Shown here: positions 4,885 through 60,362 of the stretch, piece by piece | Numbering within the stretch: the stretch's first letter is position 1 | Layout: each line of letters begins with the position of its first letter | Source: Hormiphora californensis | Lineage: Eukaryota > Animalia > Ctenophora | Assembly (NCBI GenBank): GCA_020137815.1 | Contig: CM035351.1 | Location: forward strand, 3,844,001-3,908,000 | Direction: 5' to 3' | DNA: 64,000 bases | The notes under the pieces: generated by a model | The model's input: only the letters and a program-made list of their open reading frames with translations | The model's database searches: none | Told to the model about the DNA's origin: nothing | Translations under genes and position numbers: made by a program

Positions 4885-6054
4885 TTACAATAGAACTACT
4901 CCAACAATCAAACTGAAAAGAGTGATTCCAACTGTAGCCATGGAAACAGCACCCGATTTAACTTTGTCCGGGTCTTCGGTATTGTTGTTGTTGTTGTCCC
5001 CATCTCCTCCGTTGTTATCGGTGTTATTGTTATCAGTATTATCAGTGTTATCAGTGTTATCGGTATTGTTGTTATCGGTATTGTTGTTATCAGTGCTGGT
5101 GTCCAGGGGTGCGACTTGATTGGCGTATTGACCCTGGTAATTCCCGGGCGGGTAGTACTGACACACTACGTAGTAACTGTTCATCCCGTTCTTGACAAAT
5201 GTTGCGTAGCCACAATTCAACTGTTTGCTGTTCTTCCATACCACCTGGAGGGAAAGCAATGGATGAGGATCAAATCCGGCCTAAAATCCGGCCAGAATTG
5301 ATTTGGATTTAGATCAAATTTCATAGATCAAAAGTGACCAAAAATGAAAGTGGAACATCATCAAAAGTGATCAAAAATTTGGATCAAAACTGCCCTAAAT
5401 TCTTTGCTACAACCGGGAATATATCCAGCTTTTATAAATAGGTTTTTGGTAAATTTTTATTAAAAAAGCCAGATCAAAAGACGTGACTTGGCGTGGGAGG
5501 AGATTGGAGACATTATCCTTCCACGTCAAGCCACTTCTCGGAGAAATATAATAGATGGACTCTGTCTGGCGCCGCGGACCTCACTGTAAAATCGGGGTCT
5601 GGCACCGCCAGACAGGGTGGACTATAAGAAGGGTTGCCATAGCAATCCCCCCACAAACCTGTGTAAAATGTCCAGTTACTCCACCGGTAGATTTGCTGGT
5701 ATCAAAATCCCAGTTATCGATTTCATTGTACCACGCCTGTGTGGATCCCTCGTAGGCAGGAATTATGGTTGCCACGGTTCCAGTGGTCCCCGCCATTGCC
5801 AGATTCTCCCCGTAACTTCCCGAGCTGTGTTCCATGGCCTTGTTGGCCGCCATTGAGTCAGCCCATGACTGAGCGGTGAAAGTGACGTCATTGCCGCTCT
5901 CTCCATAGCACAGATCGGATGTACCCTCGTGCAGGGCTCTGAGGGCATTGTGCTTATCTAGAGCAGCTTGTTCTGCGGCAGTGAGGGAGCCTGTCTTGCA
6001 TACTGCGTAGGTAGTACCCAGGAAGAGGGATATAAGGAGTACTAGACGTGCCAT
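4885..6054 (-). CDS. Secreted, probably GPI-anchored CAP/SCP (PR-1/GAPR-like) domain protein, ~251 aa; exons 6054-5659 and 5244-4885
   Basis: Signal peptide MARLVLLISLFLGTTYA; CAP motifs HNALRALH, GENLA, GHFTQ|VVW, VVCQYYPPGN; Asp/Asn/Thr-rich linker; hydrophobic C-terminus; phase-0 GT-AG intron joins GHFTQ to VVWK. Confidence 0.92.
5562..5615. mobile_element. Tiny MITE (CTGTCTGGCG...CGCCAGACAG family)
   Basis: TIRs plus near-perfect 8-bp TSD GATGGACT/GGTGGACT; family also at 23709, 41109, ~35520-35885, ~41410-41453, ~59560-59612. Confidence 0.75.
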
Positions 6055-6928
6055 GATATCTGGAAGGGGGGGATATTTTTTAAAGTTTGGCACACACTAG
6101 ACCTAAGCCTATAGTAACCTGTCAAAGACAGAGCAAACTGTGACGATAGAACTAGACCAAAAGTTGTGGGTTAGTATGTACTGGGTTGTTATTGAACAAA
6201 GCACTATGTGGTAACCGGTAAATTGGTCTAGTGGTTACACACACACAATGACAATCAAAACAATGCCGATCTACAGAGCTATATGAAAGTAGCCCTGTAG
6301 CAAGGCAGGCTGAGATACCATCTCATTCTCCCAAAACAAACATGGAAGTGTGGTATAGCTGTGATATCATTGACACTTCCAACTTGCATGTATCATGGAG
6401 GGTGTGCTACTGCAGAACTGTGTACAGCCAAATAGCTGATATCACAGCTGTGATATCAGCTATTTGGCAGATACGAATTCTGGACAATTAGTAGATACGT
6501 CACCCAGTTAAACACATGGTAAATACACCCAATCACATTGCTCGTGCTACAAGAACATGTACTGTTCTACTCACTGGTACATTTAGAACATACCTCACCT
6601 GATAGATCAGATCCACTTGATAGATCATGTCCATTTGAGTTATCTAGCTAGCTCTAGGCTAGCATGTCAATCGAATTACAGTCGATCATCGTCACCATGC
6701 AAAAGCCCCGGAAGTGGCTCCATTCTCTCTCCGCTGACTTCTGCAGACATCTTTGTCTCGAAACAAATTTGTTCGTGACCATCTGAAATTCTGTACTTTG
6801 AGCGCGCGTGTTTAATTTGCGCGTTCGTATGCGCGGCGCGGTATAGCGCAATCACGAAAAATGTGGTCTCTCAAAATAAAAACTCGCGATTTTCAAAATT
6901 TTCCTGGTATAAAAAGTTCGGCCAGCGT

Positions 6929-9792: not shown

Positions 9793-26280
<16,488 letters not shown>

Positions 26281-26320: not shown

Positions 26321-27144
26321 GGGGGGGGGCCAACGAATTTTTTATATATTTCCTTAATTTTGGAATTTTTTATATATATATAAAAATATATAAAAATATA
26401 TAAAAATATATAAAAATATATAAAAATATATAAATAATATATAAAAATATATAAAAATATATAAAAATATATAAAATAAACCCTTTTTTCACCCCTTTTA
26501 CTTTCAAAAAAGGGGATAATTTCCATCTATTGTTCACTTGAATATGTTTCATAGAGTTAATTTAAGTGTTTGAGAGGGTGATAAGCTGTTTTACATAATT
26601 GAGAATGTGTTCAAAAGTGAATTATGCACTGTCAAAAGTAGAACTGGTGAAGAGAGGTTCCGGCCTAATAATATCTACCAGTTTTGGTGTGATTTCAATC
26701 ATTTTTTGTATGTTGATCCGTGCAGATGTACTAGAACTGGTCAAGAGAGGTTGGGATCGCGAAACTAAAAAACAAATCATTTTTGACGTCATTTTGACGT
26801 CATGACGTTATTGACGCGACGTCACGATGTTACAAACGTCACATTGATGACGGAAAATCATCAGGATTATCTAGATGAAGATGCTGACCAAGTTTGAGAT
26901 CAATTGAATGATATTTGATCCCGCTATGGCGAAAAACAGCTTTCTGTTTTCACACTTTCGGCACAATTTTTTATATATTTTTATATATTTTTTATATATT
27001 TTTATATATTTTTATATATTCATATGTATTTTTATATATTTTTATATATTTTATATATATATAAAAAATTATGTTTTTTTTTTTCAAAAAAAAGGTATAT
27101 AAAATATATAAAAATATATAAAAAATGAGCGTTGGCCCCCCCCC
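26321..27144. mobile_element. TIR element with G9CCAACG termini, subterminal AAAAATATAT arrays, 8-bp TSD CATTTACA, 40 nt after the CLUH stop
   Basis: Exact TSD at 26313-26320 and 27145-27152; mirror-image AT-rich arrays at both ends. Confidence 0.85.
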
Positions 27145-28031
27145 CATTTACATATAACACCTAATTTATTACAAACTCAATTGACGATTTTTACCAGCTG
27201 AGAATGGAGTCAATGTAATTTCTAGTTTTGTATATCGATAGATCGTTGGATATAATTGAGTGTGTTTAGGTAGTTATGGTGTTTTCTCACATCTGCCTGA
27301 CCTTCAATATAATACACTAAACCACTTTTATTGTAGTTCCAATAATTGGATGGAGAATATATTGTGATTTTTAGAGTGGAACCCGGTTTATAATGTATAC
27401 CCACGCACACACTAACTAGTTTGAAATTAGTTATTAACTTTTGTATCGAATGAGTTATGAGCCCCTAATGTGTATGTTCTTCCTCTATATTAGGTTATTG
27501 TTATTGATCGAATGGTGTGAGTTGGTTTGGGCTGTTTAGTTGTCCATTTTGTGCCAATTTATATCAGAATTAGGCAAGGCTTTCCCGTTTTTTTGGGTGT
27601 TTTTGAAAATCGATGTTTGTTATGGACACCGTATGCATTGTCTATCAGTGTCTTGATCTGGGTCACCTCTCCAGCAGAGGTGATGATACTGTTCTTAGCT
27701 ACTTGTAGCTTCCGAGTGTGAAAAGTTGTGTGAGTGTATCTTATCATTTTTCGTGTACCCTCTCTCTCGAGTCTTAACTTATTACCCCCATGAATATAAT
27801 GGTTGTGTTTTAGTTTGTTTTGGGAGTCCCATTTCCCGATGAAAATGTGGCATGAAGATCGTAGTTTCAAGCTGTGAAACTGAAACCAGTATCTTGGAAA
27901 ACGCGCATTTATTTCAAATACACTGCCTCTTGAAACGCGCGTTAAGATGCGCGCCGCGCAGTTATTTGAAAATCGTAGTTTCAGCTCAAAACATTTTCCT
28001 TCCTTTTTTTAAATGAGCGAAACATTTCTCG

Positions 28032-28096
28032 TTGGAATGCGCTGCAGCCCCCTCATGCGCGCACCCCCGCAACGAGGGGCCTGCAACGTATGCCAA
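28032..28096. mobile_element. 65-bp internally deleted derivative of the 6929-7495 element, 9-bp TSD CATTTCTCG
   Basis: Left part matches 6929-6977, right part matches 7474-7495, joined at AGGGG; TSD 28023-28031 / 28097-28105. Confidence 0.85.
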
Positions 28097-28189
28097 CATT
28101 TCTCGTTTTCTTTATTTTCAGTTTTTACTTGCCTGAACCACTTGATGATGAAAAACACCCATTGATTTATCCTTTTGACTATTTAGGTG

Positions 28190-28869
28190 ATGTGGAAGGG
28201 CAAAAACTCGTTTGGAATCGTCGGAAAAGACGGGGAAGTTAACTTTTCAAAGCTTGAGAGACAGATTGATACCGCTGTTGCGGCAGATGAGCGTTACTGG
28301 ACCCAAAATCAGGCGAAAATCCGAGCAGTTACCAACAAAGTTGCCTCCTACGAAGAATTTGAAGAAATTGTGAAAGCTAGCCACCTGAAGCCGTTGGAAA
28401 AGGGCGATCGGATTAGTGACATGGACGTGTTTACTCAGCCATGGAATGTAGCGTCTTCCAAAGATAATTACTCTTTACAGAACCAGCACAATCAGACCTC
28501 AGTACCAGTTCTCTGAAAACCCTGACTCAATTCAACCGAGAGTGGAGAAAAGGAAAACAACCCTCCGATCGATTTCAGTTACTACTATCGATGGCAGAAG
28601 TAGACGTTCTTCGAGTTTTTCATGCTGAGATTGGACTTGGTCTTCTCGGTGAAATTATCGAAGTTATTCAAATTTGTTTCAGTGAAGATCAAACGGAAAA
28701 AGTTTGTGAACTTTTGACGGCTTTACCAAAGTGTGGGCGATTTGATTTGTCTCTTAATTTCCTGTCTCAGAAAGAGAAACTTGCCCTCAAATCCGTTTTG
28801 GACAGTGTTTCCTCTTATCTAGGCCCTGAGAAAGTAGCTGAACTATCTACTCTATACCAACTCATTTGA
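28190..28869 (+). CDS. CCDC103: Dynein axonemal assembly factor CCDC103 (DNAAF19), intronless, one frameshift at ~28468-28513
   Basis: N-terminal ADERYWTQNQAKIRAV...SYEEFEEIVKASHLKPL (dynein attachment factor N) and, in the next frame, QFNREWRK...FHAEIGLGLLGEII...GRFDLSLNFLS (RPAP3_C-like). Confidence 0.9.
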
Positions 28870-28995
28870 GTGTTTTCAATGTTTTTTGACTGTGTGTTCC
28901 CTGATTGTTCTGATTTATTTTAAAACGAATCCCAAACTTTTTTCCATCGATAACATCTCTAAAAACGCCATTTTCCTCTCTGAAGCTCAGAAACC

Positions 28996-29305
28996 ATGTC
29001 TTCTGCATTTCACGATGAAGCTCTCCGCAAGGCTCGGTGCATGGAACGTAAAACAGCTGGCCTAGTGGAGGCAGCAGTAGCTCCAGTGGTAAAGGCAGCA
29101 CCCGCCCCACTACCGGAGAAAGAGTATCTGCAGTTCTTGGAGCAGGAAAACAAACAGAAATGCAAAATAAGGTTGGTGTTGTAACTCTGAATTCTGAAAA
29201 CTTCTAAATCAATTGAATTTTGCAAGTTTTGTTGTTGAATCACTCCGTTCTCAACAATGATGCTTCCCCAGGTTTTCGTCCGTGAACTATGCTCAACAGT
29301 GGTGA
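28996..29305 (+). CDS. Unknown 69-aa microprotein; exons 28996-29171 and 29272-29305
   Basis: ATG in AAACCATG context after an acceptor AG; phase-2 GT-AG intron gives MSSAFHDEALRKARCMERKTAGLVEAAVAPVVKAAPAPLPEKEYLQFLEQENKQKCKIRFSSVNYAQQW; no family recognised. Confidence 0.62.
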
Positions 29306-29524
29306 TACCAAAGCTGTAGGCAACGATTGTAGTTTCAATTTCGTGCTAGGGATTTTTTATAATCAAGTAATATTATCTTTGATAGAGAATTGTGTATTTA
29401 AAATCGATTTTACAAATTTCAAACCATTACAATAGTTTCATTACAAAATGATGTACCCATACCCCTGTCCTTAAATTATTGCCTCTGTTTAATTTCATTC
29501 TCCCTTACATTAGTGCCGAATGTA

Positions 29525-31679
29525 ATGGCACAGTATGTGCTTGCAGGCATAGCCCAGTGTCCCAACTATGCCAGAGCTGAAATTTTAGCAGACAAACTCT
29601 CCATCAATCTTCCAGATTTCAAGGTCAGTATGGTAGCTTAATTATGCCAGGTTACTTCTAATTCGTTTCAATTAGTTTCTAACATCCCCTAACCCCACCA
29701 GGTCCATAAAATAGTGCTATCAGAATCCCAATGGAAAGACTGGCTAAACAAGACATGCTCAACCCAGGGCTGGTCTCATGGCGAGTCGCCCCTGATATGG
29801 CGAGAGCTGGTTGACCGGGGTGGGGCTGGGACCTACCTGGGAGGGTGGAAGGAATTTAGTGACATGGCGGGCCACTGGTACAACTATTCAGACACGCTAG
29901 AAAGTGGTAAGGTGACTGAGATTTGTGGGGAGAACAAGGCAAGTCATGAGGCCAGTGTTGCTAGTTCTGTAAAACCCGCTGTGACAAAGACTACTATAGC
30001 GGTCGTTGGGGCGACTCTCCCCCTCGCTTACTCAACACTACCCCTCCTTCTGGGATCTTGTTTTGAGGAACATAACCTGGTCCTGGCCCTACAGGGTGAT
30101 AACAGCGGTGTACTTGAAGGTAACTACCATTTTCCATGTTTGTATTTTAACAGGCACCCTGTTTTGTCTGACTTAGCTCTACCACCTACCATCTCTCTAT
30201 TTTGTAAAAGAAGGATTAGAACATTTTAATCCCCTCAATTACAGGTATCAAGATGGAGCTAGAGGATTGTGCTTTTCCTGAACTGCACGAGATCACAACC
30301 ACCCAAAGTGTCGGATCTGCAGTGGCTACTGCTGATTTCATTCTAGTTCTAGACCCCCTGGACACATCCTCCCACCCTAACAAGTTCCAGTTAATAAAAG
30401 CTGTAAACCTGTTCTACAAGTCTTTAGCTGAGGACTTGAAGGGCAAGATGAAAGCAAATGCTCAGGTAAGCAGGTTTTACAGACTGCCTCTTTGACGTTC
30501 GTCCCTATTTGTCACTTCCAAACTTCTCTAAAAACCTGTCTAAAAAAGTGTCTAAATCTTGTCCCATTTCCGTCAGGTGATAATCTCAGGTTACAAGTCC
30601 AACCTTGGTGGCATGCTATTACGTCACTATGGGGCCACATGGGGGTACCATAACAACAGTCCTAAACCAAGATGAGCAACTAATGAGGTCCATACTTGCC
30701 CTAAAACTAAACGTTCTACCCTCTGATATTGTGGATGTTGCTGTGTGGGGAAACGTCCCTGTATACGATCCGGCTAGTGCAGGTTATGGCTACTGTTTGT
30801 AATCATGTTGGGGCTATAACTGGACCTCCAAACTACCAGAAAACTGTGGCCTGTTGCTTTGAATGAGGCTGCTTGGGAAGATAAAAACGTGCCTAGTAGG
30901 GACACACGAGATAAGCAAATATCGGAGTTGTCAGGAAAACCACCCTGTTCTATCATCCGCTTTGGCGATATTCCGACATATCTCAGCGCTGGCTAGCGGC
31001 TGTGTATCGAGTACGATGGGAATTGTGAGCGAGGGACAGTGTGGGACGACAGGCTGGAAGTGTCTTTGGGTTCCCAGTCACTGTGTCTGGAGAGGGTGTT
31101 GTGACTGTGAAGGAGTACGGGGAGTTGCCAGAGACGATAAAACAACTCGTCTCCTTGCAGGATAATATGCTGCTTGTAGAGAAAAAGGTGAGAGAGAGTA
31201 GAGAGTGGTACATTTTATGAGCTTCATTGCTCATTAGAAAGCATCCAATATCATCAAGACTGCCAATAAATACCCCCGGCCCTTAGATGCCTGATGTCTC
31301 TATTGCATCTCTATTGCCCCCTCATATTGTCTTGGTCATGTTTCTATCCCCTTATTTTCCTATTTTGTTCACCAAGTCCGTTCACCAGGTTGCGTTGGGT
31401 GAGTGTGACGATTACGAAACGGCCATGCTGCACTGTGAAGCTGCACTTTGGTCAATCCTGGAGAGTCCAAAACTAAAACGAGAGCTAGAGGAGAGGGAAC
31501 TGACTAGATTAGCTGCTGAAGAAGCAGAGAGGAAGGCGGCTGAGGCAAGAGCAAAAGAAGAAGCTAAAAAGAAAGCTGAGGAGGAGGCTCTAAAGAAGGC
31601 TGAGGAAGAGGCAGCGGCAGCGTTAGCAGCGGAGGAGGCAGCACAGCAGTTAGAGGAAGATGAGGCAGATGAGGACTGA
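29525..31679 (+). CDS. MDH1B: Malate dehydrogenase 1B-like protein; exons 29525-29623, 29702-30119, 30245-30465, 30577-~31186, 31389-31679
   Basis: [37 protein letters not shown]...[13 protein letters not shown] matches the MDH1B N-terminus; [26 protein letters not shown] motifs; charged helical tail; frameshifts in exon 4. Confidence 0.9.
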
Positions 31680-31800
31680 GAATATGATGAATTGGGACTG
31701 ATAGTGTTTTTAGTTGTAAATACTCATTTGATGTTGCGTTTGTTAGTCAATTCAACCCCCTTTATAATTCTGGGAATTCATCTTATAGCACCTCACAACA

Positions 31801-31897
31801 CCCTAGTAACCCCCTAGTAACCCCCTCCTAGTAACACCCTAGTAACCCCCGTCCCCCTAGTAACACCCTAGTAACCCCCTAGTAACGCCCCAGTAAC
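31801..31897 (+). repeat. Tandem CCCTAGTAAC array (7 exact CTAGTAAC plus 1 variant) just upstream of the MYCBP acceptor
   Basis: Direct reading of the sequence. Confidence 0.9.
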
Positions 31898-31928
31898 CCC
31901 TAATCCTCTCTAGCTAAGAACCCAAACC

Positions 31929-32246
31929 ATGTCTGCTACCTACAAGACGTCTGAGTCCAAGAGGGAGGAATTCAGGAAGTATCTAGAGAAGGAGGGGGTT
32001 TTGGATAACCTGACCAAGATTCTAGTTTGCCTGTACGAAGAGCCAGAGAAGCCGATCAATGCCCTGGACTTTGTAAAGCACCATCTGAGTGGGGGAGCAG
32101 TTGAGAGCAGTGATGTTGAGAGCCTCCGATTGGACCTCCAGGAACTGCGAACAAAACACGAGTCTGTGGTGGCTGAAAACGAGGCGCTGAAAGAAAAGCT
32201 AAAGGAATACGAGGCACCCGCTGAGGAGAAGGAAGCCGAGAGTTAG
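31929..32246 (+). CDS. MYCBP: c-Myc-binding protein (AMY-1/FAP174 homolog), intronless, 105 aa
   Basis: YKTSESKREEFRKYLEKEGVLDNLTKILVCLYEEPEKPINALDFVKHHL is the conserved MYCBP core, followed by a coiled coil. Confidence 0.95.
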   Translation: MSATYKTSESKREEFRKYLEKEGVLDNLTKILVCLYEEPEKPINALDFVKHHLSGGAVESSDVESLRLDLQELRTKHESVVAENEALKEKLKEYEAPAEEKEAES

Positions 32247-32470
32247 ACACTTTGTTCAGATAGAAAAACTGTATGATATTTCCCCGATTTATGAGATAAC
32301 ATGTGTGTGTAAAGTTTGCTGGTCGATATCTCTCTCTCAGAAAATACGTTAGAATGTTGCATGGCAAATGTTGTGTCCGCTGTGTGACAATCGATTGACA
32401 CAAAGACCGAGTATGTTCGTTGTAGCGCGCGGTGAATGTTGAACGGAGGATTGCGCGCGCGATCCTCCAA

Positions 32471-32484
32471 ATCTCCATAGCAAC
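32471..32484 (+). promoter_or_regulatory. Candidate RFX X-box (ATCTCCATAGCAAC) ~95 bp upstream of STYXL1 ATG
   Basis: Fits the RTHNYYWTRRNRAC X-box consensus at all positions; lies beside a CG-rich patch (GCGCGCGCG). Confidence 0.45.
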
Positions 32485-32579
32485 ATAGCATCGTGAACTG
32501 CTTGTTGTCAACAAACCTTCCCAATCCTTCCTCCATCGGATTTCTAAACCACTTCTAACATCTCTCCTATTTTCTAGCC

Positions 32580-33941
32580 ATGTCGGGTATACAACTGTGT
32601 GAGCCGACAGAGCTTTACAACATTCTCAATCAGACAGATCTCCAGGGACTGCCATGTATCGCAAACCGGACCTACCTTCTCTTGCTAGGTAACCAAAACA
32701 AACCGATAAACTCAAAAAGGTTTTTCTGATACTCTTTTTCACGGTTCTCGCATATTTTCAGATGTTCGAGAGTACAGCGCCTATGAGGAATCTCACATTC
32801 TCACATCGAGGTGAGTAACATGAAGCCTCCAGGTTCAAATTGAATGTTTATCACACGTAACCAAACCGACAGGCATTCCCCACAGTTGAGTGATGGTGGT
32901 GACTTCCAAATTCCTGTGGATGCGGAGGTAGAGACGAAACAGTATTGTGTAGTGTATGATAGCTGCACTGCGGATACTAACAACAAAGAGAGTGAGTCCC
33001 GCCCCTTTATATCACCAAAACACCTGACCATTTCGGGTGGGGGTGGGAGGGGGGTTGATCACCAATTCGTCCATTTGTAGCCCCCAGTTTCTATCATTGT
33101 TTTGACATCTTCTACCCGCCAGGTCCGGTTTATCAATGTGCTAAAATGCTCGGAGAGCTGACTTCCCGAAAATCTATCCTAATTCTAAAAGGAGGCTATG
33201 AGTCATTCTCTGCGTTGTACCCTTACCTAAAATCAATTCAGATATTCTACAGCCCTCGGGTAAGTCTGGAGACTAGAGATATAACTTTGCCCACTTGAGA
33301 TGTTAGCCCACAGTTCAATTTCCCTCTGTTGAGAGGGATGAAGAAGGGTTGGGTAGGCAACTTCAACTTTTATTTGTTTAAACTAGATGAATGTGAAATT
33401 GAGGTACCATCACCTCGCTAATTTGCCCCTTTTGATCCCCATTCCTCCCCCAGGAAATGGAATCCCTGCCTCTCTTTCCTCTTGAAGTGTTCCCTGGTAC
33501 TGTCTACATTGGAACATCCAAACAGGTCTCCAATGGATCCCTAATGAAGAGTCTTGCAGTTAAACATATCATCAATGCTTCCCCTGACACCCCCGTTAGG
33601 TACATATTGTGTGTATAAGAACTTGAGTATTACCCACCCCCTACTCAACAAATAAAAACGGTTGATACTGAGATTTCGGATAGATCTCGGTATCTCCACT
33701 CGGCAGTAGGTAGTATACTGGCAAGTGGAGATATATCGAGATCTTCCTAATCGTGATAGTTGAAGTAATGAAGTGGTCATGTTCTGTGTATGACTTCATT
33801 GTGTGATTCCACTCCCGCCATTTCCACATGATGTATGGTGTGGGAACCCATACAACCCCAGATCCTTATCTTTGTACACGTGTACAATACTGTTATACAG
33901 AGACGCCGACTCTAAGAATAAACTTCACTATAACTAATCTA

Positions 33942-34000
<59 letters not shown>

Positions 34001-34574
34001 TCTGTCTCTATCTCTCACTCATTCTAAATCACTATATATATTCTCAGTGTCGAGGAAGCGATAAGTGTGAAGAACGTCACCATGGGAACTGACAGCCTGG
34101 CTCAATTCAGGGAGATCTCCCAGTTGATTGAGAACTATCGAGCCAAGAAGGAGCCAGTAGTACTTGTTAGTGATTTGGGTATCAGCAGGAGCATTGTACT
34201 GATCTTGGCATATCTCATCAAGAGGAATAAATGGACATTGGAGGTAAATACCGTCCAACTCCCATCCAGCCCCTTTAAACTAACCCTCCCCAATACACTC
34301 TGACCGCGGTTCTCGATTGCTGAGAATAGGTCAGGCCAATGCTCTGACAGCCCCCATACAAAAAGGAATAATATTTAGTAAATCAACATCGCTCCAATTT
34401 AAAAAAAAGGGGTTCTGACTAAACACTGACCTATTTCAGAAAGCGTGGAAAGTTGTAAAACATACCCAGAGCTACATCAGGCCAGAAATATCCTTCATGC
34501 GTCAATTGTCCGACTTCGAATTGGAAATCTGCGAAGAGAGAACCACAAACATCGCCGTCCCAAACTTGATGTAG
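32580..34574 (+). CDS. STYXL1: Serine/threonine/tyrosine-interacting-like protein 1 (rhodanese + pseudo-DSP); multi-exon
   Basis: MSGIQLCEPTELYNILNQ...LLLLDVR...YEESHILT, ILKGGYESFSALYPYL, degenerate signature VSDLGISRS (Ser for catalytic Cys), IRPEISFMRQLSDFE; last exon 34440-34574. Confidence 0.92.
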
Positions 34575-36541: not shown

Positions 36542-38896
36542 TCAACCGTTGTTGCAGAAGCTGTGGGGTCGACAGACACCGTCCCCAAGACACCTCACGT
36601 TCCCCGGTGGGCAGTCACCTAGTGGGGGGGTTACCATGGTTACCAAATAGTTGGGAATAGAGGGGAGTTACCATGGTTACCAAATATTTGAAAATGAAGG
36701 GGGTTGCCATGGTTACCAATTGGTTACACATTATGATTGGTTACACATATTTACACTGCAGGCTCGGTAATACACACTTACTTAAATGAAATGCGATAAC
36801 CTTGACCTCCGATAGCACCAGAGGGGCCTGTTCTTCTTGGTTGATAACAAATCGATCAATTGTAACTTTGGAGCCAACGAAATGTTCCCCATTCCTCGAT
36901 TTACAGACAACGTTAACAATGCCATTCCGGGCAGTACTGTAGTTAACTTTACCGCATTCCGTGTCCGCCCAGTTTCCCCTGCAGAGTGGGATAATGCTTG
37001 TTAGAAAATAAAAAGGCCTTCGTAATCTTACTCCTGGCATTTTCTCGCGATCAAGGAGTTCAAATTCAATATTAGAAAACAAAATGAAGAAACAGGATAA
37101 TTCAGATTTTAGAACTATAGAAGTGGCCGTGGAGGTACGGTGTGGATGAGTTTTATCCATGTCTTTGTGACGTGGTTTGTCGGATAGGAGAACTCAGAGT
37201 TAAGTAAATGAACTCGTGATGCTGCACCAGATGTCCCAGGCCATGACTCACTAAATAAACCGCGTTATGTGTGATATTTCATTCAACTCTGATATAACCA
37301 CCCCCTCCGCTTTGTTGTTGATATTGTTTTTCTCTGGGCAATGAGCAATATTAGCTCCAAAGCTGCTCTCTATGCAGCACAATATGGAGCGTATTGATTG
37401 CGCCACGACTAAAGTTATCAAATCAAGAGCGTGAGAGGGTGAGAGAGAGAGAGTGATGGAGAGGGAGATAGAGAGAGGGAGAGAGAGGGAGAGAGAGATG
37501 GATAGAGATAGAGAGAGAGACAGAAAGAAAAAGAGAGGGAGAGAGAAAGATAGAAGAAGATAGAGGGAGAGTTGAGTGGTCAGGGAGAAAATCACAATGT
37601 CAATACACATGTGCTACTTCTGCAAGTGCAGCAGGGATGGAGGGAGAGGGAGGGAGAGACAAAACAGGGAGAGAGAGAGAAAGAGAGAGAAAGAGGGAGA
37701 CTAAGAGAGCGAGAAAGAGAGGGGGGGGTGCCGTAAAAGTTACTCTTTGCTGGACTAGCTTACTTTACCTTAACATTAATAAATGTAAACCCTTTGTCAT
37801 GCCTTGAGAGCTCCCTTTTTGGATCCTTATCCATTTATACAATCCGAGTTATCAATGTACATGATGTACAATTCCAGTTCGATGTTTGGCAATTGACCCA
37901 TGATGTTATGTCATTGGATAAATCTTTTGACTTTTGCATTTGCCTTTGTCTAAAATGTACGCGATTGCCGGGCTCGGGCTGCTTTATATTCTTTGCTTTG
38001 GTTTGCTCCCTTAGAGTATTTCTATTTCGATTGTCGATATATCTTCCTCGGTTTCAATCACTCCCCTCCCTGATCCCTCTCTCTCTTTCTCTCCCTCCCT
38101 CTCCCCTCTCTTTCTCTCTAGTCTCTATTTTACTCTCTCTTTTTCTATCTATCTCTGCATCTGTCTCCCTCTTTCTATCCCTATGACTCTCTATTTATTT
38201 CCACTCTGCCAGGCTGCATTTAGTGTGTTAATAAATAGGATTAAAGAGCACAAAAGAGCACAAAGGACTCCAATTTAAAATCATTGTCATCCTGACCTGG
38301 ATCAGGGAGAGGCGCAAGCTAATAATGTACGCCTTAGCCGCTGAGTCAGCTGTAGAGAGAGAGGGGGATAGAAATGATAACCCGCGGCCTGTTTTGTTTC
38401 GTTTATCTCTTCTCAAGAATTAAGATACAGGTGAAACTGTAGTTGAAGTTCAATGTGTCTCAGTTGCAGGAGTCTAGTACTGGAACAAAGACTTTCTGTC
38501 AGTTTCAATAGAATACCATTAAAGAAATTGTATAAGACAATTGACGGCTCCGTTAATTTGCTTTTTATTGAACTTCCAGTTTATTTCACATTTATTTCTA
38601 CAATAGCCATGTGTGTTTGATTTCTAGAAATCAAACACACTAAATCATTAGACATGTGTAATCGTTATAACAGCTGTAGTTAAGTCACCATACTGTTGAC
38701 TGAAGACCATTTTTGCTGGTCTTGATCAGAGTTGTCACTGAACTCTCATCAGAATACATTTAGAGCTGTGTACGATTGTGGTCAAGGAACATTTAATATC
38801 GTGATGGTTTGACCTTCTCGACTTCCGTACATTAATCCGGGGTCTTCAGGCCAGAGGAAGACAATGGCAGAGAGAGCGAGGAGAGGAGAGCGGAGG

Positions 38897-39123: not shown

Positions 39124-42100
39124 TCTCTCTCACACAGTCTCTCCCCATCTGTCTTTATAACTCCTTCTCTCTTAGGCTCTAGAGATCTCTGGGCTCTGAT
39201 TCAATATTTTTCCGGCTGCCAGTCTCATTTTCATTCTTAGTGTATTTGTCATGCTCTTCGGATTTAATTGTTTGAAGCTCAATCTGAATCAACAATCACT
39301 GTCACACTAAAAGTTCGATCGGTTAGACTTGTCTTTGCGAATGGTTTAATATCTAACAGGAACCCACCCATGCTCATTGAATTGTTCAACTTGCGCACAG
39401 GATATGATAACCTCAAGGACAAGCTTTGAACTTAAGAGCGGTAACTATCTTAAACTCCCTAGCTGGCAGCTGCACTTACTTGTCTCCAACGTGCACGGTT
39501 GCTCCAGTGATGGCCTCAGGTCTGTAAGTTGGGACAGTAGATGGATTTTCCTCTGGCACGTATATCTCAACTCTCTTGACGTCATACGCACGGTCCAATG
39601 TCACCGTCCACCAAGCTACGTAGCCCATTCTGAGGGTGGTGATATATTTTGAAAAGCTCTGCCTTATCCCGCGCTGCATGTGGCCAGCAACGTTTGCCAA
39701 TAATATATTCAGTGGGGAGGATGAAAATAGCTGTAATGGATCCGAGTTATAATTGGGACAAAGATAATGCTGGATGATGTTCAGAAGGGGTAGTATATAT
39801 CTTACCTAACCATACTGGAGTGATGGGGTGAAAGGGTTCGGTTTATGAATCCATCAGTAGCTAACTCTGCCCTGTAATCGTCTCCCCAAATCACCTGTCG
39901 CTGGGGTCCTTGTTTAGCAGGTCGGAGATGTGCTACGTTAACTAGAGGGGGAAGGGTTTAGTTGGAGATACATCTCTTGTCCTCGATCTATAGGTCTAAT
40001 ATATGCTTAGATAGGACCAACATATTATGCATGGACGTCATAGTCGCCACAGAACATAGGAATGCATTCTAAAAAACCGGTCTCTAGTAGATTTACCATC
40101 ATCAACAGTGCGTTGTAACTATTAGGTTGCCCAGTAAATATTTTCGTTTGGCTTTTATTGGGAAAATGGTTTGAGATAGAGCAAAATGGACTTCACCACA
40201 GTTTTTCTCACGCGATTTTGGATCGGAATATCATGCCTGATATCGGTATTTGGCTGTTCTCGGTTCCCACCAGGCTATTTACTCTACACCACTCTTGATG
40301 CTGCTGCATATGAAAAATCGCGATTTTCGAGTTTTAGCACTAAAGCTGCTGTACTTCCTAAAAATGGTACCTGAGTGATGTTTTGTTGCATCAAGCTTGT
40401 TCATTGGACAATTATCTATCGTTTAAGATGTAATAAAAGATTCTATCTTTATTTTGTCACTGAGCAATGGGCCTCCAAAAAGTTTTGGTCAAAATTAGAA
40501 ACTTTCAATTCCGGGTCTCACCAGGATTGGCTCATAATCAAAAACTCTGCAGTAAAAGATAGTTCTAAGTCAGTTCTACGACGTAGTGAACCCAATTATG
40601 TGATTGGTTGACTTAAAAAGTGAGTTATTGACGTTTTCGAACACACCCGTAAAACAGGCCAGATTTTTTTGCGCTTTTTCGATTTTTGATGTTACATTTA
40701 CTGTTCTAGTGGTTACTATCGAACGCGTAGAGACCCAAATCGCGTATACATTTTATCCTTGGACGATTTGCTATCGATTAAGCACCATTGGAGCTAAAAA
40801 GACTGTACCAGTTTTCTTAGGGAAGCGTTTAAAAAACTTTGGTGACCCCGTGCAGCGGCAACAACAGTGGGGTAGAGAAAATAGCTTGCTGGCACCCCAG
40901 AAAAACTATATACCGATATCAGGCATGATATTCCGATCCAAAATCGCGTGAAAAAAACTGTGGTGAAGTCCATTTTGCTCTATCTCAAACCATTTTCCTA
41001 ATAAACACCAAACGAAAATATTTACTGGACAACCTAATACAATAAAAACCTTCTTCTAGATCCTTCTAAATCTATTAGCGAAAGGACAACACTAAACGTG
41101 CTCAGAGACTGTCTGCCGGCGCCGACCCGATCTGAGCGCACTGTATCATAATCAAAACGGGGTCCGACACCGCCAGACAGCTCAGAGAGATCGCGGCTGC
41201 TTACCCTCAACAGTTTCATGAACGTCGTCCATATCTTCCTCAGCCCCCTCAACTACCTCGACCAGTGGGTAGTAGGGGTACTTTGTTATCTTGCACGAAT
41301 CCTGTTTCCGGTCTCGAGAGAGTCTGAGATACCCTTGCTCTCCCCAGTCTATCCCCCAGCTGCAGGAAAGTGAGAGTGAGGGAAAGGTTTTCTCTGCCCC
41401 AACATTTGTATCGCACCGACCCGATCAAAACAACGTCTAGCGCCGCCAGACAGCCCATTGATAGCTTGTATGTTACAAGGTCAGGTATAAAAAAGTCTGA
41501 AGTTGTACCTGTTTTTGATGGTCCAGTATTCCTTAGTAAACCCGGTAAGAACCACAGCATGGTTAATATTAGCGTGTTTCCTCGGACCTGGACAGCCAGT
41601 GAAGATACCCGAACGATACCCAAACATAGTCGAGGCATGGATGGCCACCGCCAGGACCCTAGTCCTCAGGGCTTCCTCAACTGCTGCTTGGTTATCTCGG
41701 ACTACTCTATACCCGGTTACCCTAGCATTCTTCATTCCGTCAGGCGGGAGGGTATCTCGGTTACACGTCGCATCTGTGGGGAGGTAATTTATTAGTGTGT
41801 TGAGTACAAACCGCAACTTCATGGTTTATTAAAAGGGAATGCATACAACTCCACTGCAGCACTATATCTATAATTGTTTATCAAAAGGGGCTCCACAACA
41901 ATGTAGAGATGAGAAACCTAGACTTAATATATTGCAACACCATATGTTAGCCCTATATCGTTTAGTTAGAGACATGAGAAACCTATAAGTGATATTGCTT
42001 CACTTATATGAGCCCTGCCCCTATAATAGCCTTCTTCGAGCAAGCCTTGTAGCTCCTAGCTATTTTTACCAAGCCTACTTCTAAACATCACATCCAGTAT

Positions 42101-43859
42101 GAAGCTATCATACCCCCTACCATTAATTATGTAAAGTGCTATATAAATTATTACCGAATCCCGTGTATGGGTAAGAGTTGTAGGTTGCCAGTCGTTGCTG
42201 CTTTTTCACATATCCATACACTGTGTAGTACCAGCCCCCTGATGAACACGAGTCCCTGTGTTCTTGGAGCTCGTACATGCAGTCAATAAGCTCCTGTGAG
42301 AGATATAACATGTCAGGAACCGAATACATGGTCCCTGATTGGCTAATAACCAGTCACGTGACCTAAATAACGAGTTCTGATTGGAGCTCGTACATGCAGT
42401 CAATCAGCTCGTGAGAGATACATGTGGTTAGAATGTTTGTGATATAGGGTAAACCGGGGCAATTCGAACAACTGGGGCAATTCGAACATAGTACTGCCCG
42501 TCTCTCACCTAGTTAAGCTATCATAATGACGTCATCCTATCTCCAGAAGAAAACTGCTCGTTCGAGCCTGCCCGTTACCACTAAATAGGCTCTAGATCCA
42601 AACCACTATCAGAACTATGAGAAATATTCAAAGATATATATACAGAGGTTTGAATAATATGTTATGGGACTAAAGTACATAGGGTAAACCGGGGCAAAAT
42701 GGTTAACTTTTTACTTAATCGGTTCTCGCTCCCATTTAAAAAAAGATACAATGAAAAAAATTATATAGGATTAAAGTTCATTATTTTATCTTTCAAATAA
42801 GATAAATTTCAACTCTAGGGACCATCATTTACTTAACTAAATAACTAATTTAAAAATTTTGGTCGGAAAAAATGGTACCGGGGCAATTCGGACAACACCA
42901 ATAGGAGTGCTTTATTTCGTCACGTGGGAGTCACGTGAACGTCCTCACAACACCAGAAGAAGATTCCCGCCTGGTGTTGTTAGAGGTGGGGGCAATTCGA
43001 ACAATGTAATCTACACGCAATCTACACGCTGGTCTTTCTTGTTCGAATTGCCCCGGTATCACGCGTGATCACGTGGTGCAAAGAACTGCACATCATTGGC
43101 CCGGGAGTTAACCAAATTGCCCCGGTGTGTTAACCAAATTGCCCATGTTCGAATTGCCCCGGTTGTTCGAATTGCCCCGGTAATCTTAATTTACCAGAAT
43201 TTGGAATGAAAACATGCGAATATTTAAATAATTTTTATACCATCTGAAAGCTGATATTATTAGCTTTCAGCTGGTTTTTTCAAATCGGAAATTGACCAAC
43301 TTAAACCGGATCTAGAGCCTATTTAGTGGTAACGGGCAGGCTCGAACGAGCAGTTTTCTTCTGGAGATAGGATGACGTCATTATGATAGCTTAACTAGGT
43401 GAGAGACGGGCAGTACTATGTTCGAATTGCCCCAGTTGTTCGAATTGCCCCGGTTTACCCTACGTATATTTTCGAGTTCTAACAGATAGATAGAGAATGG
43501 AGAATCTCTATCTCTATTAGAGATTGCTTTGAAGTTTTGAAGTGAGGCAATAAAATTCAAATAATATATTAATATCATGACTCATAGGAATATTATGACC
43601 GGGAAATGACTCCCCTGTCATCGTTTTTTTTCACATTCAATAGAGCTCTATTGTATTTACCGCGTCATACTCCGTACTTATAATGAGTCATAGTGACGTC
43701 ATAATTGCCAAGAATAGCCGTAGGGGAAGGACAGACGCAGAGACCGACAGTGGCGAGCGCGAGAGAGGAGAGAGAGAGAGAGAAGAGAGAATGAGAGAGA
43801 AGAAGAGAGATAGAGAGACAGACGGAGAGAGAGAGAGAGAGAGAGATAGCGAGAGAGAG

Positions 43860-43896
<37 letters not shown>

Positions 43897-44002
43897 ATAG
43901 AGAGTAGAGAGGCATAGATCAGAATCGATATAGAAAGCGCGAGAGACGACGCTCTCTGAGATGTATCTCAATCTCCCTCCTATCTTTTATCTCTCTCTCT
44001 CT

Positions 44003-44094
<92 letters not shown>

Positions 44095-47000
44095 TTCTCT
44101 TTCTCTCTCTCCCTCCCTCTCACTGGCTCTGGTCTTTTGTTAGTGATTCCATTGTGTTACAAAAGCATGAGCGTCAGCCACAAACATATTTGAGGAGTCC
44201 TTACCGCTCTGCATTTTCGTTTTTCATCAATACCAGGAATTTTCTTCTTTTGATAGTCTTAAACTCTCTTTTAACCGATATATAATTGATGTCTCCACTA
44301 CATATAACACTTAGTACAGCTTCGGTGGCCTTGTATACATGATCTGTTTAAAGCGCTTTCCTGGGGCTTATAACTGAGTTCAGGCCATAAATTATTCCAA
44401 AGGGTCCATTTGAGAATTCAATCTGGTTCCAGTTTGCATAAGCTTTTACACACCTCATGTTCATTGTTCTAAAAATTATAAACGGAAGTTCCGATACATT
44501 TATATCGGAAGTTCCCTCCCCTATTGTCGCCCCTATATTGTCAGTTATCTCCATTGTTTTTGGTATCTGGGGAAACTGCCATGATCTGGTAGTGGTCCAT
44601 GGGGGTATAACTGCTGTGTTATTGTCTTATTAAGCTGTTCTTTTGTATCTTTCTTTTTTCTCTCTCTCACTCTCTTTCTCTCTATCTCTCTATCTCTCTC
44701 TCTCACTCTCTCTTTCTCTCTATCTCGGTTAATTTCTCTCACGCTAGTGCTCCGTTAATAATGCAGTTATGACAGAGAAAGGTAGACCATCCAGCTATCT
44801 TGTTAGTTTACATGACTCATTTTGTCGGAGAAGGAGAGATCGTTTTATATTTGCAGATCAAATGACCCAGTCTTTTTTTGCAAAGCACTTATTCTATTTT
44901 TAGAATGCCATTATTTTGTGTTTGTTGTTTAATAAAATCCTGTAACTCTTCATAAAATACATAGATTCATCTGAATTACAGCGTAATATCCTAATCCCTC
45001 TCTCCATGTATAGGCCGTACTCTAGGCACACAGCATATGACATACCATAATTATAACTTAAGTACTTTACAATAGTGTCGGCTGCCACGACACACACACT
45101 GTAGTAGCAGTATAGTTGTGTAATAGTTGTGTATGCAGGCATGTTTTCCAGAGCTCCATAGATCTGAACTTTATACGAAACACTGATCCAGTGTGCTATG
45201 ATCTGGTTCTTCTGTAAATCTCTTGCATCCACAATTTACCTCTTTTCCTTGTGACTTGTGTGTATGTATTGCAAAACTAAGAGATTTCTTGGAATTTATA
45301 GCCATTGCTCCCTAAAGATTCCTTCCAATTTTAGACTGTCTAGACCTAACTGTTTACTTGAAGTTGAAAAAAGCAACTGTTCGGTTTGTCTCGTCTGGAA
45401 AGGCCCTTAGTCCACTAGTTTCTTTACCTGTTCAGAGAATGATTTCAGGTAACCGGTTTCCTGTTTGTAAGCACTTTCAATAGATCCAACCTAAAAGGAA
45501 TTGCAGGTCCATCATTAAAGTTGAGTAGTGTCACTGTCAGTTGAAATTGTTCGCCCCATGGGGCCCCAGGGACAAGCTGTTTAGTAGGATCAGTTTCACA
45601 ATTATTGTTCACATAGTGCAGGGTTCTGTATTGCCTTTACCAAGAAGGCAAATTTACATGGTTGTGAATGTGCAGGCACTTACCGCAGCGAACGCCCAGC
45701 AGCTTTTACACGCGTTTTGATTCTTCACAGGAGTCACAATACCAGTAGCACGGTGGTCTACCTAGATGGAGATGGGGATTGGGGCTGTTAGGCTAAATAT
45801 TCTATAACATAGTTCAAGCATCGAACTAATCGTGCAGGCTCTGTTTCTCGTAATATCTTGGCCATGAATATACGGTGTATCCCAATAATTTCAATTTACC
45901 TCCTCTGTACCACTAAGTGATTGGCCCAACAGGGGTTTATACAACTACTCTTTTTAAATCAGTGTTTACCTCATCAGGGAGTTCCACCATGTTGCTCATC
46001 TCATCTCGTTTGTGAACAGTTGTTACCTCCTCCATCTTCTTCATCTGCTCGGTAACGTTTCCCAGACCCAGATAGCTGTCCAACTCTGTGTCCGTCTGTG
46101 TGTGGGACGGGGTGAAACATACCATGAACAATGGATATTATATCCGGGGGGGGGGGGGGGATCAAAAGAGTGTGATCTATCCTCTTCCGTATACGTGTAA
46201 AATGATGTGTCGAGGTTTATACAAAACGTGGGATGTTTCTGACGTTATTCTCTTGCTCCATTGTAATAATAGAGCTCTGTTCCGAGTCACTGGATGGCCC
46301 TCTAGTCTCTCTTTCTATCTTTCTCTCTTTCTATCTCTTTCTCTCTTTCTATCTATCTTTCTATCTCTCTCTCTCTCTCTCTCTCTCGCTCTCTCTCTCT
46401 TTCTCTCTTTCTATCTCTCTCTCACTCTCTCTCTCTCTCACTCTCTGTGTGTTGTACCTGCCATTACTTCACCCAGAATATGCATCATTCATAAGTATAA
46501 GCCTAGCTCGCTGTTTACAAAGGCCTAGACTTTATACTTAAATGGTCCTGTTTATGCTCTAAAACTCTATTTTTAAGTCGAAATGATTCCTACATTGTAC
46601 CAAATGTGCCTAATCCTATTATTTGAATTCAACTTGATAAATTTGTAGTTTAAAATTGTTTAACTTACCAAGTCGCTGAATTTGTTAATTTCCATCTGAT
46701 AGAACGTGTTGTGGCCTCTGTTATGGTGTTTCACTTCCTCGTAGCGCTTCCTAAATTGTTGTAGCCTCATTTCCTCCTCCTGTCTGCTTGCGTACTTTCT
46801 ACCAAACTCTCTGTGATAAGTTATGTTACCATGGTAACAGTGTGATGATACGTAATGTTACCATGGTAACAGTGTGTGATACGTAATGTTACCATGGTAA
46901 CATTGTGGTGATACGTTAATCAATCGTTAATCAATCGAACGTCGAACTAAATTTTAGTAGGGGTGTAAGGAAAGATGATTTATAGAATTGTTGAAGGGAA

Positions 47001-55093: not shown

Positions 55094-56978
55094 ATGGACA
55101 GATTTGCAGATTCATTCTTTGATACCCTCAAGAAGATCAAGGATACCCTCCTAGATGAGGTAAAAACACGTGATATATCCCCATGGCAACCGTTCTTATC
55201 AAATCAAAAACGTGATATATCCCATGGCAACCGTTCTTATCAAATCAAACACGTGATGTATCCCCATTCTAGTTTACCGAACAACCTCCAAGTACTTGAA
55301 ATAGTTTTTCCTTACAGTTACAGAACACCATATAAACTATTCAACCTGTGTCTACTGATACAAACTACATTTCAGGACGATGCAGAGAAGGCTCCGTCAG
55401 TGTGTATCTCTGAATGCAACTCTGAGATCAGTGTCGGAGCGAGCTCCCAGCATGACCAAGTAGTAGTGCAGGAGAAGAAGGAATCTACAACAAGCATCCC
55501 CGAAATTAGAGAGGAAGCAGTCCCAAAACTCAGGGTAATAATAATAATAGGGCAGGGAATAGGGATCAGAAAGTTTTCCCAAAACTTAGGGTAGGGAGAA
55601 AGTTTTCCAAGCTAAGACATAGTTGCTCGGACCCCAGTTGGGATCACGGATTGGTAGGGTACCAAAAGTAAGAGGTTACAATAATTGAACGGTGCCTCCC
55701 TCTGAGTGTTGCAGTAGCTGTGTCCTATCAAGGATATGTTTTATAGCGACTGAGAGCTCCAACCCGGAATTATATAATGCAATGATGGGCCGCCTTGGCA
55801 AATTAGGAACTCTGGCCATTGTTGTGAAAAACATGCCACTGACAAATTGAAAATTCTCATGTCTACTTTGGAAGTCGACAGGGCCGTGAATCGCCCCTGA
55901 AAGATCGAATCACGTATTCCAGCTATAAAAACAACAAATTTCCAGTAATGAAGGAAAATAAGCCGGTGACTAATTACATAACTTTTCAGAAAATAACTCC
56001 AGCGTACGAAAGCTCATCGAAAAAAGCAGACTCAACTCTCCTAGCAATATCGCAGCAGGAATCAAGCGGTAAGCGGGATGTGAATCTTTTATCCTTTCAT
56101 TCTCTCTCTATCTTTACCTCGTCATGTTCTCTTCCTTTCTCTCTCCCTACCGATTTAAGGCACACTATCTCTCTATCTCTGTCTCTCTCTCTTTCTATTT
56201 TCCTCTATCATTCACTTCAAGAAGTAGACTCTCTCTTGCAGCAAGCTTAGTAACTGTAGAGAATTCGTGACAGGAAGTAAAATATCATTCAATGAATAAA
56301 ATGACTTTTATCGGAGTTATAGAATTAGCTGTCATTGCTGTCAGGCCAATCATGTTCTAGCCGCGGTTCTCGCGTGCTCCGCGTACAGAACTTATTTGGA
56401 AGAACTGAGAATAGAGTCAGCCGTCAGGCCACTGCTCTGACGACTGGCAGCATTGACGTTACCCAACCCAAAGGCCAGATCTAAACCACATCATAAAACC
56501 TTTAAATAGAATATTCTAGGACACACCCTCTAGGCAACACGCCATCGATTATCACCCATGCAACTGGGGAGATTAAATTATGATTATGTCGGCCAAACTA
56601 ATTAGAAACCTAATAATCCCTCACTCATAATTTTTTCTGTACTCATATTATCTCTTATTATCTCCCGTCTCACTTGAACGGCAGAAGGACTTCAAATTCA
56701 TATTTAAATACTTTCCTATAGAATACACTAGAAGCGAAACCTAAACAACCTTACCTATATTTCCCCCTTTACAGGCCCAAACACAGAATCCCAGAAGTGA
56801 AACCTAACCGATATCCCCCTTAACAGGCCCAAACACGGAATCCCAGAAGCGGAACAGGAGTATGAGGATGGCAGGGAGTATGCAGAGTGTTTATCGGAAA
56901 ATTAACAAGGACCGAAACGTGCATAGCGACCGGCATTACCTTGTTTCTGTCACCGAACAAATAAAGGTATATGCGTAA
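55094..56978 (+). CDS. Hypothetical protein of unknown function; candidate exons 55094-55159, 55376-55534, 55990-56068, 56827-56978 (5' end uncertain)
   Basis: Four segments bounded by GT/AG splice in frame to MDRFADSFFDTLKKIKDTLLDE-DDAEKAPSV...PKLR-KITPAY...ESSG-PNTESQ...VYA*; no domain recognised. Confidence 0.4.
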
Positions 56979-58555: not shown

Positions 58556-60362
58556 TTAGATGGCTGTATACAGATAATATCTGGTACCTAAACACATGTT
58601 CTACATGGTATTACCCCTTCAAGTAGAATCTCCCCTTTTCAACCAAATACTATACCTAGCCCTATTAGCCTCCACCCACCCCGAACCACCCCACCCACCA
58701 CCAATATATACATACTAAACACAACTGTGGACTGAGAACAAATCCTTGCTAGTTTAGCCTTCTAACCTAATTGAACCTAATCAGACAGATAGGTCTCACA
58801 TATCCCGTATCAAAGATTAATTGAAAACGAAGACGAAACTGTGGTTCAAGATCAAAGTATAAACGTTCCTGGTAAAAATAACCACACAGGACTAGAACAA
58901 CCCCGAGAAGAGCCCCACTCCAAATCTCCCGTTATATTGTGAACCTGCCAGATGGTAGTTCCATGCGAGGGGAGAGGGCGGGGGGACTCTTCTCCAGTGC
59001 CGGCGATATCGCTTTGCGATAGTCCCTGTGGGCTTGCCGCAGGCAAGCCCAGGCACTCAGAGTAGTAGTAGTAGTAGTACCCCTTACTCTACAAGATACG
59101 TGATTGTAATCCCGGTTTGTTTTTCAGAGCGACGAAGGAAGTTCTCGGACACCCTCGCCAACCGCAGGGCAACACCACCATCGGCGGAGACAACTCAAAT
59201 AATAACCATGGCAACAACATGGTAACCATGGCAACTGTGTTTCTACTACTAAATATAATTAAACAAATTGAATCGAGTGATTTGAAATGTGTATTGGGGG
59301 CTTATGGAGAACGATCTTTAGAGGAGGGGGTACTGCACTGGAGACTCTCCGATAAGAACAAATGCGGGGGAGGTGAGATCCAGCCAACATGAACAACGGG
59401 GGAGGGATAGCTCGAGGTTGAAGGTTTCTTAAATATAATGTGTATTGGAGGCGAAGGAATCAAGGTTTCTTATAACACCGGGTTGAGTTCCTGCATGCCA
59501 TGCTATATGGAGGAGGGACCATGGTCACTAGGTATAATGCTGATCCACAAGGGAGTTCTGTATGGCGGCGCCATACCCCATTTGCGCTCAGATGGGGTCG
59601 CGGCGCCAGACAGAGGGAGTTCATTTATTTAAAAGCAATTATTGTATCTGAGAATTCGAAGGAATTGATATCATGGTAGTGCGTAAGTCCAAGGAGGCGT
59701 TCGAGTGAAGTTAGCGTATACAAGTAGAGAAATGGAAATATTTTGAGAGATTTTGGACCAATCAAGTGTTTGAGTATAGAATATGTGAGGTGCAGTTTTA
59801 CGGCATTTAACGTAGCAATATAAACGACCTTCTAAGGAACTTTAGAATGAAATTATTCTTTACTGATTTCACATTTACCTTCCGTGACAGTTGTCATACA
59901 AAACAAACGAATTATTAATTTTGTACTGGAAATAATAATAATAACGCCTTTGAGAACATGTCAATGCCGATCCAAAGCTGTATCAGCATATCATGTCGAC
60001 ATGTCCCGTAAGATTAGTAGCAGGCTTCAAAGTGTCACAAGTGTCACAGTGCAGTGATAGTCACAGAGCTGATCTGCACTGCATTTTCTTTCTCTATTTC
60101 TCCATCACTTTTCCGACAGACGGAATATCGTAATTATGATAGACATTTACCCGTTATGCATGGAACAACTAACTATATTGTTCGTGACTTCTGAACGCAA
60201 GATCTCCTCAAATTCGGGGAATTCCTTGTTCATGGCCGTGATTCATTGTTCTCTCAACTATTTATTCAGCGACAATGCTAAAGTCTGTGAGAATGTCAGC
60301 GACTAAAGTCTGTGATCTCTTCATTCCTTTCTCCCAGTCTGTGATCTCTCCATTCTCCCATA

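Follow-up and report, generated by a model that had tools for sequence, protein, structure and literature searches.

A candidate spliced-leader-resolved operon of motile-cilium genes in the comb jelly Hormiphora californensis

Operons made of same-strand genes less than 250 nt apart, with a general spliced leader (SL) on the downstream gene, have been described in the chaetognath Paraspadella gotoi (PMC12460157) and in the tunicates Ciona and Oikopleura (PMC7986045), those of chaetognaths showing an enrichment of protein metabolism and of low specificity to cell types (PMC12460157). Among non-bilaterians, Hydra has the bicistronic RFC140-flp operon, where the intergenic region is short and T-rich and contains the acceptor that receives an SL (PMC3273482). 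For ctenophores, no report of an operon was found in the searched literature (subscription papers were outside its scope, and candidates may be discussed in the principal paper on ctenophore SLs, Derelle et al. 2010, RNA 16:696), and the word 'operon' does not appear in the available text of the Hormiphora (PMC8527503) and Beroe genome papers. Here we describe a locus of the ctenophore Hormiphora californensis that resembles these systems. It lies in a window of 64,000 nt (GenBank assembly GCA_020137815.1, contig CM035351.1, positions 3,844,001 to 3,908,000; coordinates below count from the first letter of this window), where five genes, CCDC103, a microprotein gene, MDH1B, MYCBP and STYXL1, follow one another on the + strand from 28190 to 34574. 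Unlike the chaetognath and tunicate operons as described, it belongs to a ctenophore, its content is specific to motile cilia and its polycistronic precursor is putative. In contrast to the Hydra operon, which was proven by transgenes and joins two functionally unrelated genes (PMC3273482), it groups four or five genes of related function and is a candidate only.

The gene order, the strand and the four stop-to-ATG spacings reported by a first-pass annotation of this DNA were exact on re-examination: 126 nt (28870-28995), 219 nt (29306-29524), 249 nt (31680-31928) and 333 nt (32247-32579), hereafter gaps 1 to 4. The identities given there to CCDC103, MDH1B, MYCBP and STYXL1 agree with Pfam, PDB and orthologue matches. 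That annotation proposed a polycistronic unit or a co-regulated ciliary cluster; the layout, the ciliary identities, an SL at MYCBP and partial linkage in lobate ctenophores speak for it, but gap 4 looks like a promoter, and four genes plus one are therefore favoured over five. We consider it somewhat better than an even bet that the first four genes, CCDC103 to MYCBP, form an SL-resolved operon, followed by a separately promoted STYXL1. It is a well-anchored candidate in which the SL is directly seen at one downstream gene, conservation is indirect and we infer polycistronic transcription. A single promoter upstream of CCDC103 would drive a precursor through MYCBP; single-gene mRNAs would be freed from it as the 3' end of each upstream gene is formed and an SL is added at the acceptor that follows. 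STYXL1 would depend mainly on an RFX-type site in gap 4, whether or not there is upstream read-through, and there may be selection for expressing parts of the motile cilium jointly.

The most direct evidence comes from RNA. The locus was compared with four of 19 listed runs, three marine metatranscriptomes (X7, X8 and X10) and one DNA run (X1), all as contigs. Contig 20 of X7, which spans 31912-32321 with three substitutions and two gap letters, carries 23 loose letters before the acceptor AG of MYCBP (31912-31913, + strand), and these letters together with the AG are the last 25 nt of the 44-nt H. californensis leader as published (PMC8527503), a leader that also documents SL trans-splicing in ctenophores, as the first-pass annotation had stated. 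The mRNA of the fourth gene, MYCBP, thus receives the SL by trans-splicing, at a point 234 nt past the MDH1B stop codon. The leader seen there (one contig) is the general Hormiphora one, with no sign of a leader of the C. elegans SL2 type; no copy of it is encoded in the window, which is also without an Rfam match. At STYXL1, contig 21 of X7 begins exactly at the acceptor AG (32576-32577, + strand) with 19 further letters, and an SL on this mRNA is likely, an upstream exon being the alternative. The expectation of SLs at downstream acceptors is thus borne out directly for one of the four downstream cistrons, MYCBP, with probable support at STYXL1.

With gaps 1 to 3 shorter than 250 nt and one SL-bearing downstream gene, the first four genes fall within the working definition of an operon used for chaetognaths, as far as described (PMC12460157). 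The 3' untranslated region (UTR) of the microprotein transcript reaches at least 29424 (X8 contig 23), leaving at most 88 nt to the MDH1B acceptor (AG 29512-29513), a spacing close to the approximately 100 nt between cistrons of C. elegans operons and one that argues for the four-gene operon and against a promoter for each gene. The same holds for base composition: CpG per 100 nt amounts to 2.4, 1.8 and 1.2 in gaps 1 to 3, compared with 5.4 for the stretch upstream of CCDC103 and 5.1 for gap 4, and CGCG, absent from gaps 1 to 3, occurs six times upstream of CCDC103 and five times in gap 4. Linkage in lobates points in this direction as well. In Mnemiopsis leidyi the microprotein (ACHWQZ_G012256, KAL5257269.1) and MYCBP (G012260, KAL5257273.1) are on contigs of equal size, as are MDH1B (XP_063673922-924, three isoforms of one protein) and MYCBP (XP_063673927) in Bolinopsis, and three further ENA records each of the microprotein and MYCBP have contigs matched in size (618,211; 1,108,857; 1,439,950). 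This suggests that the neighbourhood of microprotein, MDH1B and MYCBP is shared by Mnemiopsis and Bolinopsis, with gene order read from that of the accessions, and the gene-order comparison called for by the first-pass annotation partly favours linkage in lobates. Of the 11 loci found by a metagenome scan with a MYCBP alignment (37-76% identity), none is ctenophore-like and none has a match to the other four cluster genes.

The products of the cluster have much in common. CCDC103 is described as an outer-dynein-arm factor bound to the axoneme, and MYCBP (AMY-1) as the homologue of the central-apparatus protein FAP174, which has been tied to the C2 microtubule; both roles, which the first-pass annotation had regarded as established, agree with the literature consulted and, for MYCBP, with structure matches confined to 7som/7sqc (central apparatus) and 2yy0 (MYCBP's own fragment). 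The same annotation placed MDH1B and STYXL1 in radial spoke 3 (RS3), and correctly so according to the RS3 models and literature: their orthologues belong to the neck and stalk of RS3, and each of them contacts CFAP91 (PDB 9D2F, 9FQR; bioRxiv 10.1101/2025.05.19.654877; PMC11779644), a shared partner that speaks for the operon reading. Two of the 14 RS3 genes are thus present here, whereas the RS3 models contain no chain that matches MYCBP, CCDC103 or the microprotein, and MYCBP is not mentioned in the available text of the two RS3 papers just cited. Could this content be a coincidence, the cluster being an ordinary by-product of a genome rich in short same-strand gaps, and the role of MYCBP here non-ciliary? 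Such a view, which is compatible with the other readings, can point to Myc and AKAPs as additional reported partners of MYCBP and to the expectation, computed after the fact and assuming that 3-5% of genes are motile-cilium genes, of 0.05-0.6 five-gene windows per genome with at least four of them. It fits less well with the 0.02-0.03 occurrences per genome expected for a pair out of the 14 RS3 genes lying within two positions of each other (also computed afterwards) and with the other identified junctions in the window, all of at least 1.9 kb. We hold it to be the least probable of the explanations considered.

Gap 4 is the longest of the four and the only one that is CpG-rich and bears an X-box. 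The candidate STYXL1 promoter within it (32301-32600, no strand assigned) contains an exact match to the RFX X-box consensus at 32471-32484, with 95 nt between it and the STYXL1 ATG, as well as a second, X-box-like site at 32356. An exact X-box together with at least 17 CpG per 333 nt occurs at two places only in the 64 kb, gap 4 included (0.5% of 6367 sliding windows, the thresholds having been set afterwards). The second such place is 58900-59240, a stretch beside which no gene was identified. Judged by its sequence, the gap-4 pattern is a lead, not proof, that STYXL1 may have its own promoter; a literature search for ctenophore RFX or comb-cell promoters found no paper. Hybrid operons of C. 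elegans have internal promoters, and the candidate internal promoter of gap 4 resembles these. If the CpG and X-box content were due to chance or to an enhancer, all five genes could form one operon under a single promoter. They share a strand, at most 255 nt separate the MYCBP RNA end (32321) from the STYXL1 acceptor, the RNA contig begins exactly at that acceptor and 4.8% of 333-nt windows contain an X-box match anyway, but the length and the composition that set gap 4 apart from the other three make this five-gene operon improbable.

Several observations weigh against that preferred reading. As at least 56% of Hormiphora long reads carry the SL according to the genome paper (PMC8527503), its presence alone does not mark an operon or co-transcription, and the SL evidence consists of one contig from one metatranscriptome, whose source animal shares about 99% identity with the window. 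RNA contigs reach only two of the five acceptors (28186, 28990, 29513, 31913 and 32577), those of MYCBP and STYXL1. Whole-gap cover was found in none of 60 RNA contigs (X7 18, X8 6, X10 36; depth table); a gap-spanning contig is not to be expected from mature RNA at low depth. The lobate linkage covers three of the five genes, microprotein, MDH1B and MYCBP, by accession order. X-box matches lie at 12 distinct sites of the window, six of them in tandem repeats and two in coding sequence. CGCG clusters are also found within two introns of the CLUH-like gene upstream (12740, 22244) and are absent at its start; since, in addition, the CpG peak upstream of CCDC103 is partly repeat, CpG is a weak promoter mark here. 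Finally, the 55 genes distinguishing comb row from aboral organ in Beroe and Mnemiopsis include none of the four named ones, in the part of that study available (PMC11184263), a contrast in which the aboral organ is also ciliated and six unnamed genes could not be mapped.

Alternatively, each gene would have its own compact promoter, partly in the 3' end of the gene upstream, and would receive its SL at a short outron, as the majority of ctenophore mRNAs do, the genes being packed and perhaps co-regulated with no polycistronic RNA. A near-ubiquitous SL, acceptors placed before the ATG at non-cluster genes too, the lack of a gap-spanning contig, a promoter-like stretch that fits into the 333 nt of gap 4 and the reported presence of SLs in cryptomonads that have no operons would all be in line with it. 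Gaps 1 to 3, however, are without the CpG and X-box signature of gap 4, and neither the short distance (88 nt at most) from the end of the microprotein RNA to the acceptor that follows nor the linkage apparently kept in lobates is easily reconciled with separate promoters, which we regard as a serious but unlikely alternative to the four-gene operon.

Two further arguments for the operon carry less weight than the first-pass annotation had given them. No AATAAA occurs in the four gaps, as claimed, but since only 0.54 are expected from composition this absence is uninformative. A pyrimidine tract and AG are indeed present 2-15 nt 5' of each downstream ATG, but they are not specific to the cluster: an AG directly 5' of the ATG was also found at both non-cluster starts inspected, those of the CLUH-like gene (9793) and of a CAP-domain gene (6054, - strand), so that an acceptor before the ATG is generic, as expected where most mRNAs are trans-spliced. 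Nor are the gaps entirely clean. Gap 1 (28870-28995, + strand) is 40% T and CpG-poor, with its acceptor AG at 28989-28990, and gap 2 (29306-29524, + strand) is 38% T, but gap 3 (31680-31928, + strand; 28% T, observed/expected CpG 0.29) contains an 11-nt tandem array at 31797-31900, with a DNA depth of about 570 against about 35, and is therefore not repeat-free; gap 4 is 31% T.

CCDC103 (28190-28869, + strand) is a single exon spanning 680 nt, which encodes 226 aa once a base missing near 28472 is counted. It matches PF15867 (E 6e-25, 87.5 bits, cut-off 27) and PF13877 (E 3e-16, 60.1 bits, cut-off 23), that is Dynein_attach_N followed by RPAP3_C, the order defining CCDC103, which has the alias DNAAF19. 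One extra base at 28472 relative to the assembly is present in both the DNA run X1 and the RNA run X8, which rules out real frameshifting or a tiny intron. The one frameshift in CCDC103 and the five in MDH1B, as assembled, are likely to be assembly errors. Upstream, the candidate promoter of the unit (27851-28150, no strand assigned) is a CpG- and CGCG-rich stretch with a putative role; a dispersed 63-nt repeat at 28032-28094, with a second copy at 6929, lies inside the CpG peak, and the repeat region shows very high DNA depth and is replaced in one X1 contig.

The microprotein gene (28996-29305, + strand) encodes 69 aa in two exons, 28996-29171 and 29272-29305, the splice being visible as a loose end of X8 contig 23. 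A search with a hidden Markov model (HMM) returned six matches, five of them homologues at 49-54% identity, and the residues at the end of exon 2 are shared with Mnemiopsis KAL5257269.1; from these sequence comparisons the microprotein is spliced and conserved in ctenophores, even if a word-index homologue search with it found nothing. It has no Pfam family, and its atlas neighbours are weak, unnamed proteins of molluscs and rotifers (0.88-0.89, all below 0.9). A profile search gave a weak match (E 0.0086, 23 N-terminal residues only) to 8snb_1o, a chain of 142 aa in 8SNB, the model of the sea-urchin doublet, and single-sequence PDB searches with exon 1 of the window and P0139 found nothing ciliary. 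The structure model of the Mnemiopsis protein consists of two unpacked helices (pLDDT 71, pTM 0.27). A ciliary role of the microprotein is a guess.

MDH1B (29525-31679, + strand) has exons at 29525-29623, 29702-30119, 30245-30465, 30577-31187 and 31389-31679, placed by tblastn with lobate orthologues. Features of the MDH1B class are present: an extra N-terminal domain precedes the MDH fold, MDH1B chains are closest (9fqr_Xq, E 7e-19, and 9d2f_F, E 5e-17, being the best PDB matches of the first large exon) and the Bolinopsis orthologue is named MDH1B. Exon 4 as assembled contains five +1 frame steps relative to that orthologue. With five letters taken off its 1640 nt, the coding sequence yields 544 aa, as many as the Bolinopsis protein has, and X7 RNA contig 17 has four gaps in that stretch, across four of the five frame steps; two introns are visible as joints. 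A pseudogene is unlikely on account of these contig gaps and the corrected length; a broken or null allele in place of an assembly error retains a small probability. Ten MDH1B-type transcript-sized contigs (Logan, JGI) of 1578-1920 nt code for 495-545 aa; MDH1B-type RNAs are monocistronic in size, as would be expected of separate genes and equally of an operon that is resolved efficiently. Two side observations concern its ends. A start-stop mini open reading frame (ORF) at 29520-29527 follows the MDH1B acceptor and overlaps the start codon, and a trans-spliced mRNA would meet it first; X7 contig 18 departs from the genome at 31684, 5 nt past the stop codon, with 22 letters that could be adapter, poly(A) or an allele difference.

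MYCBP (31929-32246, + strand) is a single exon encoding 105 aa, with a 3' UTR to at least 32321. Its identity to Bolinopsis microptera XP_063673927.1 and to Mnemiopsis leidyi KAL5257273.1 amounts to 86-87%, against 64% at most, over the full length, for named matches outside ctenophores, in keeping with the ctenophore origin of the window. The STYXL1 pseudophosphatase gene (32580-34574, + strand) has seven exons and six GT-AG introns, the first intron visible as an RNA contig joint, and an open frame of 296 aa. Two of its N-terminal exons match only the STYXL1 chains 9fqr_Xs and 9d2f_H (E 0.0016 or better), a DSPc domain was found, and in the loop alignment the signature loop is without the catalytic cysteine. 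X-box matches in the window number 18 against 4.4 expected from shuffles, and three tandem repeats (36626-36719, 46812-46916 and 55164-55267) have X-box-like palindromes in their units.

The first-pass annotation described the other genes of the window as kilobases apart and full of transposons. The four other junctions indeed measure approximately 1.9-6.6 kb, and dispersed and inverted repeats and microsatellites are common, but none of the 211 ORFs outside the cluster (120 and 91) matched a transposon protein family in Pfam. Only one of these junctions is a same-strand tandem, from the CLUH-like stop at 26277 to CCDC103 (1.9 kb), which makes the local background for comparison thin. The CLUH-like gene occupies 9793-26277 on the + strand, and in the gap behind it lies an element whose tandem arms (26371-26476, 26968-27124) are AT-rich; an older short gap may have been widened by an insertion. 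Elsewhere are the end of a voltage-gated Na/Ca-channel-like gene (507-3610, + strand), the single-exon CAP-domain gene (5581-6056, - strand), a papain-family protease gene (41185-46857, - strand) and, at 60360-61356 on the - strand, a probable unannotated multi-exon gene whose coding-like exons have no Pfam match. Outside this window, the comb-row-enriched genes DNAH12 and LRRC74A have consecutive identifiers in Beroe (0009.g74, g75) and Mnemiopsis (ML329912a, ML329911a), according to the accessible data of Table S2 of PMC11184263, and are possibly a second conserved pair of ciliary neighbours.

What the locus may mean can be put as follows. Tentatively, and with rather less than even confidence, it would be the first operon of a ctenophore, and one with a coherent function: an axoneme operon that cydippid-type and lobate comb jellies have both retained. 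It would co-produce a factor for dynein arms, as many as three partners of CFAP91 (MDH1B, STYXL1 and MYCBP/AMY-1, namesake of CFAP91/AAT-1) and a new axonemal microprotein, and would point to operons as a means of dosing the parts of giant comb cilia. In any case a concrete locus is now named, with orthologue identifiers in Mnemiopsis and Bolinopsis, and an unannotated ctenophore protein of 69-73 aa is nominated as a ciliary candidate. If the operon were proven, the sister group of other animals would join the operon-bearing lineages, with a rare animal operon made of the parts of one organelle rather than of mixed housekeeping genes.

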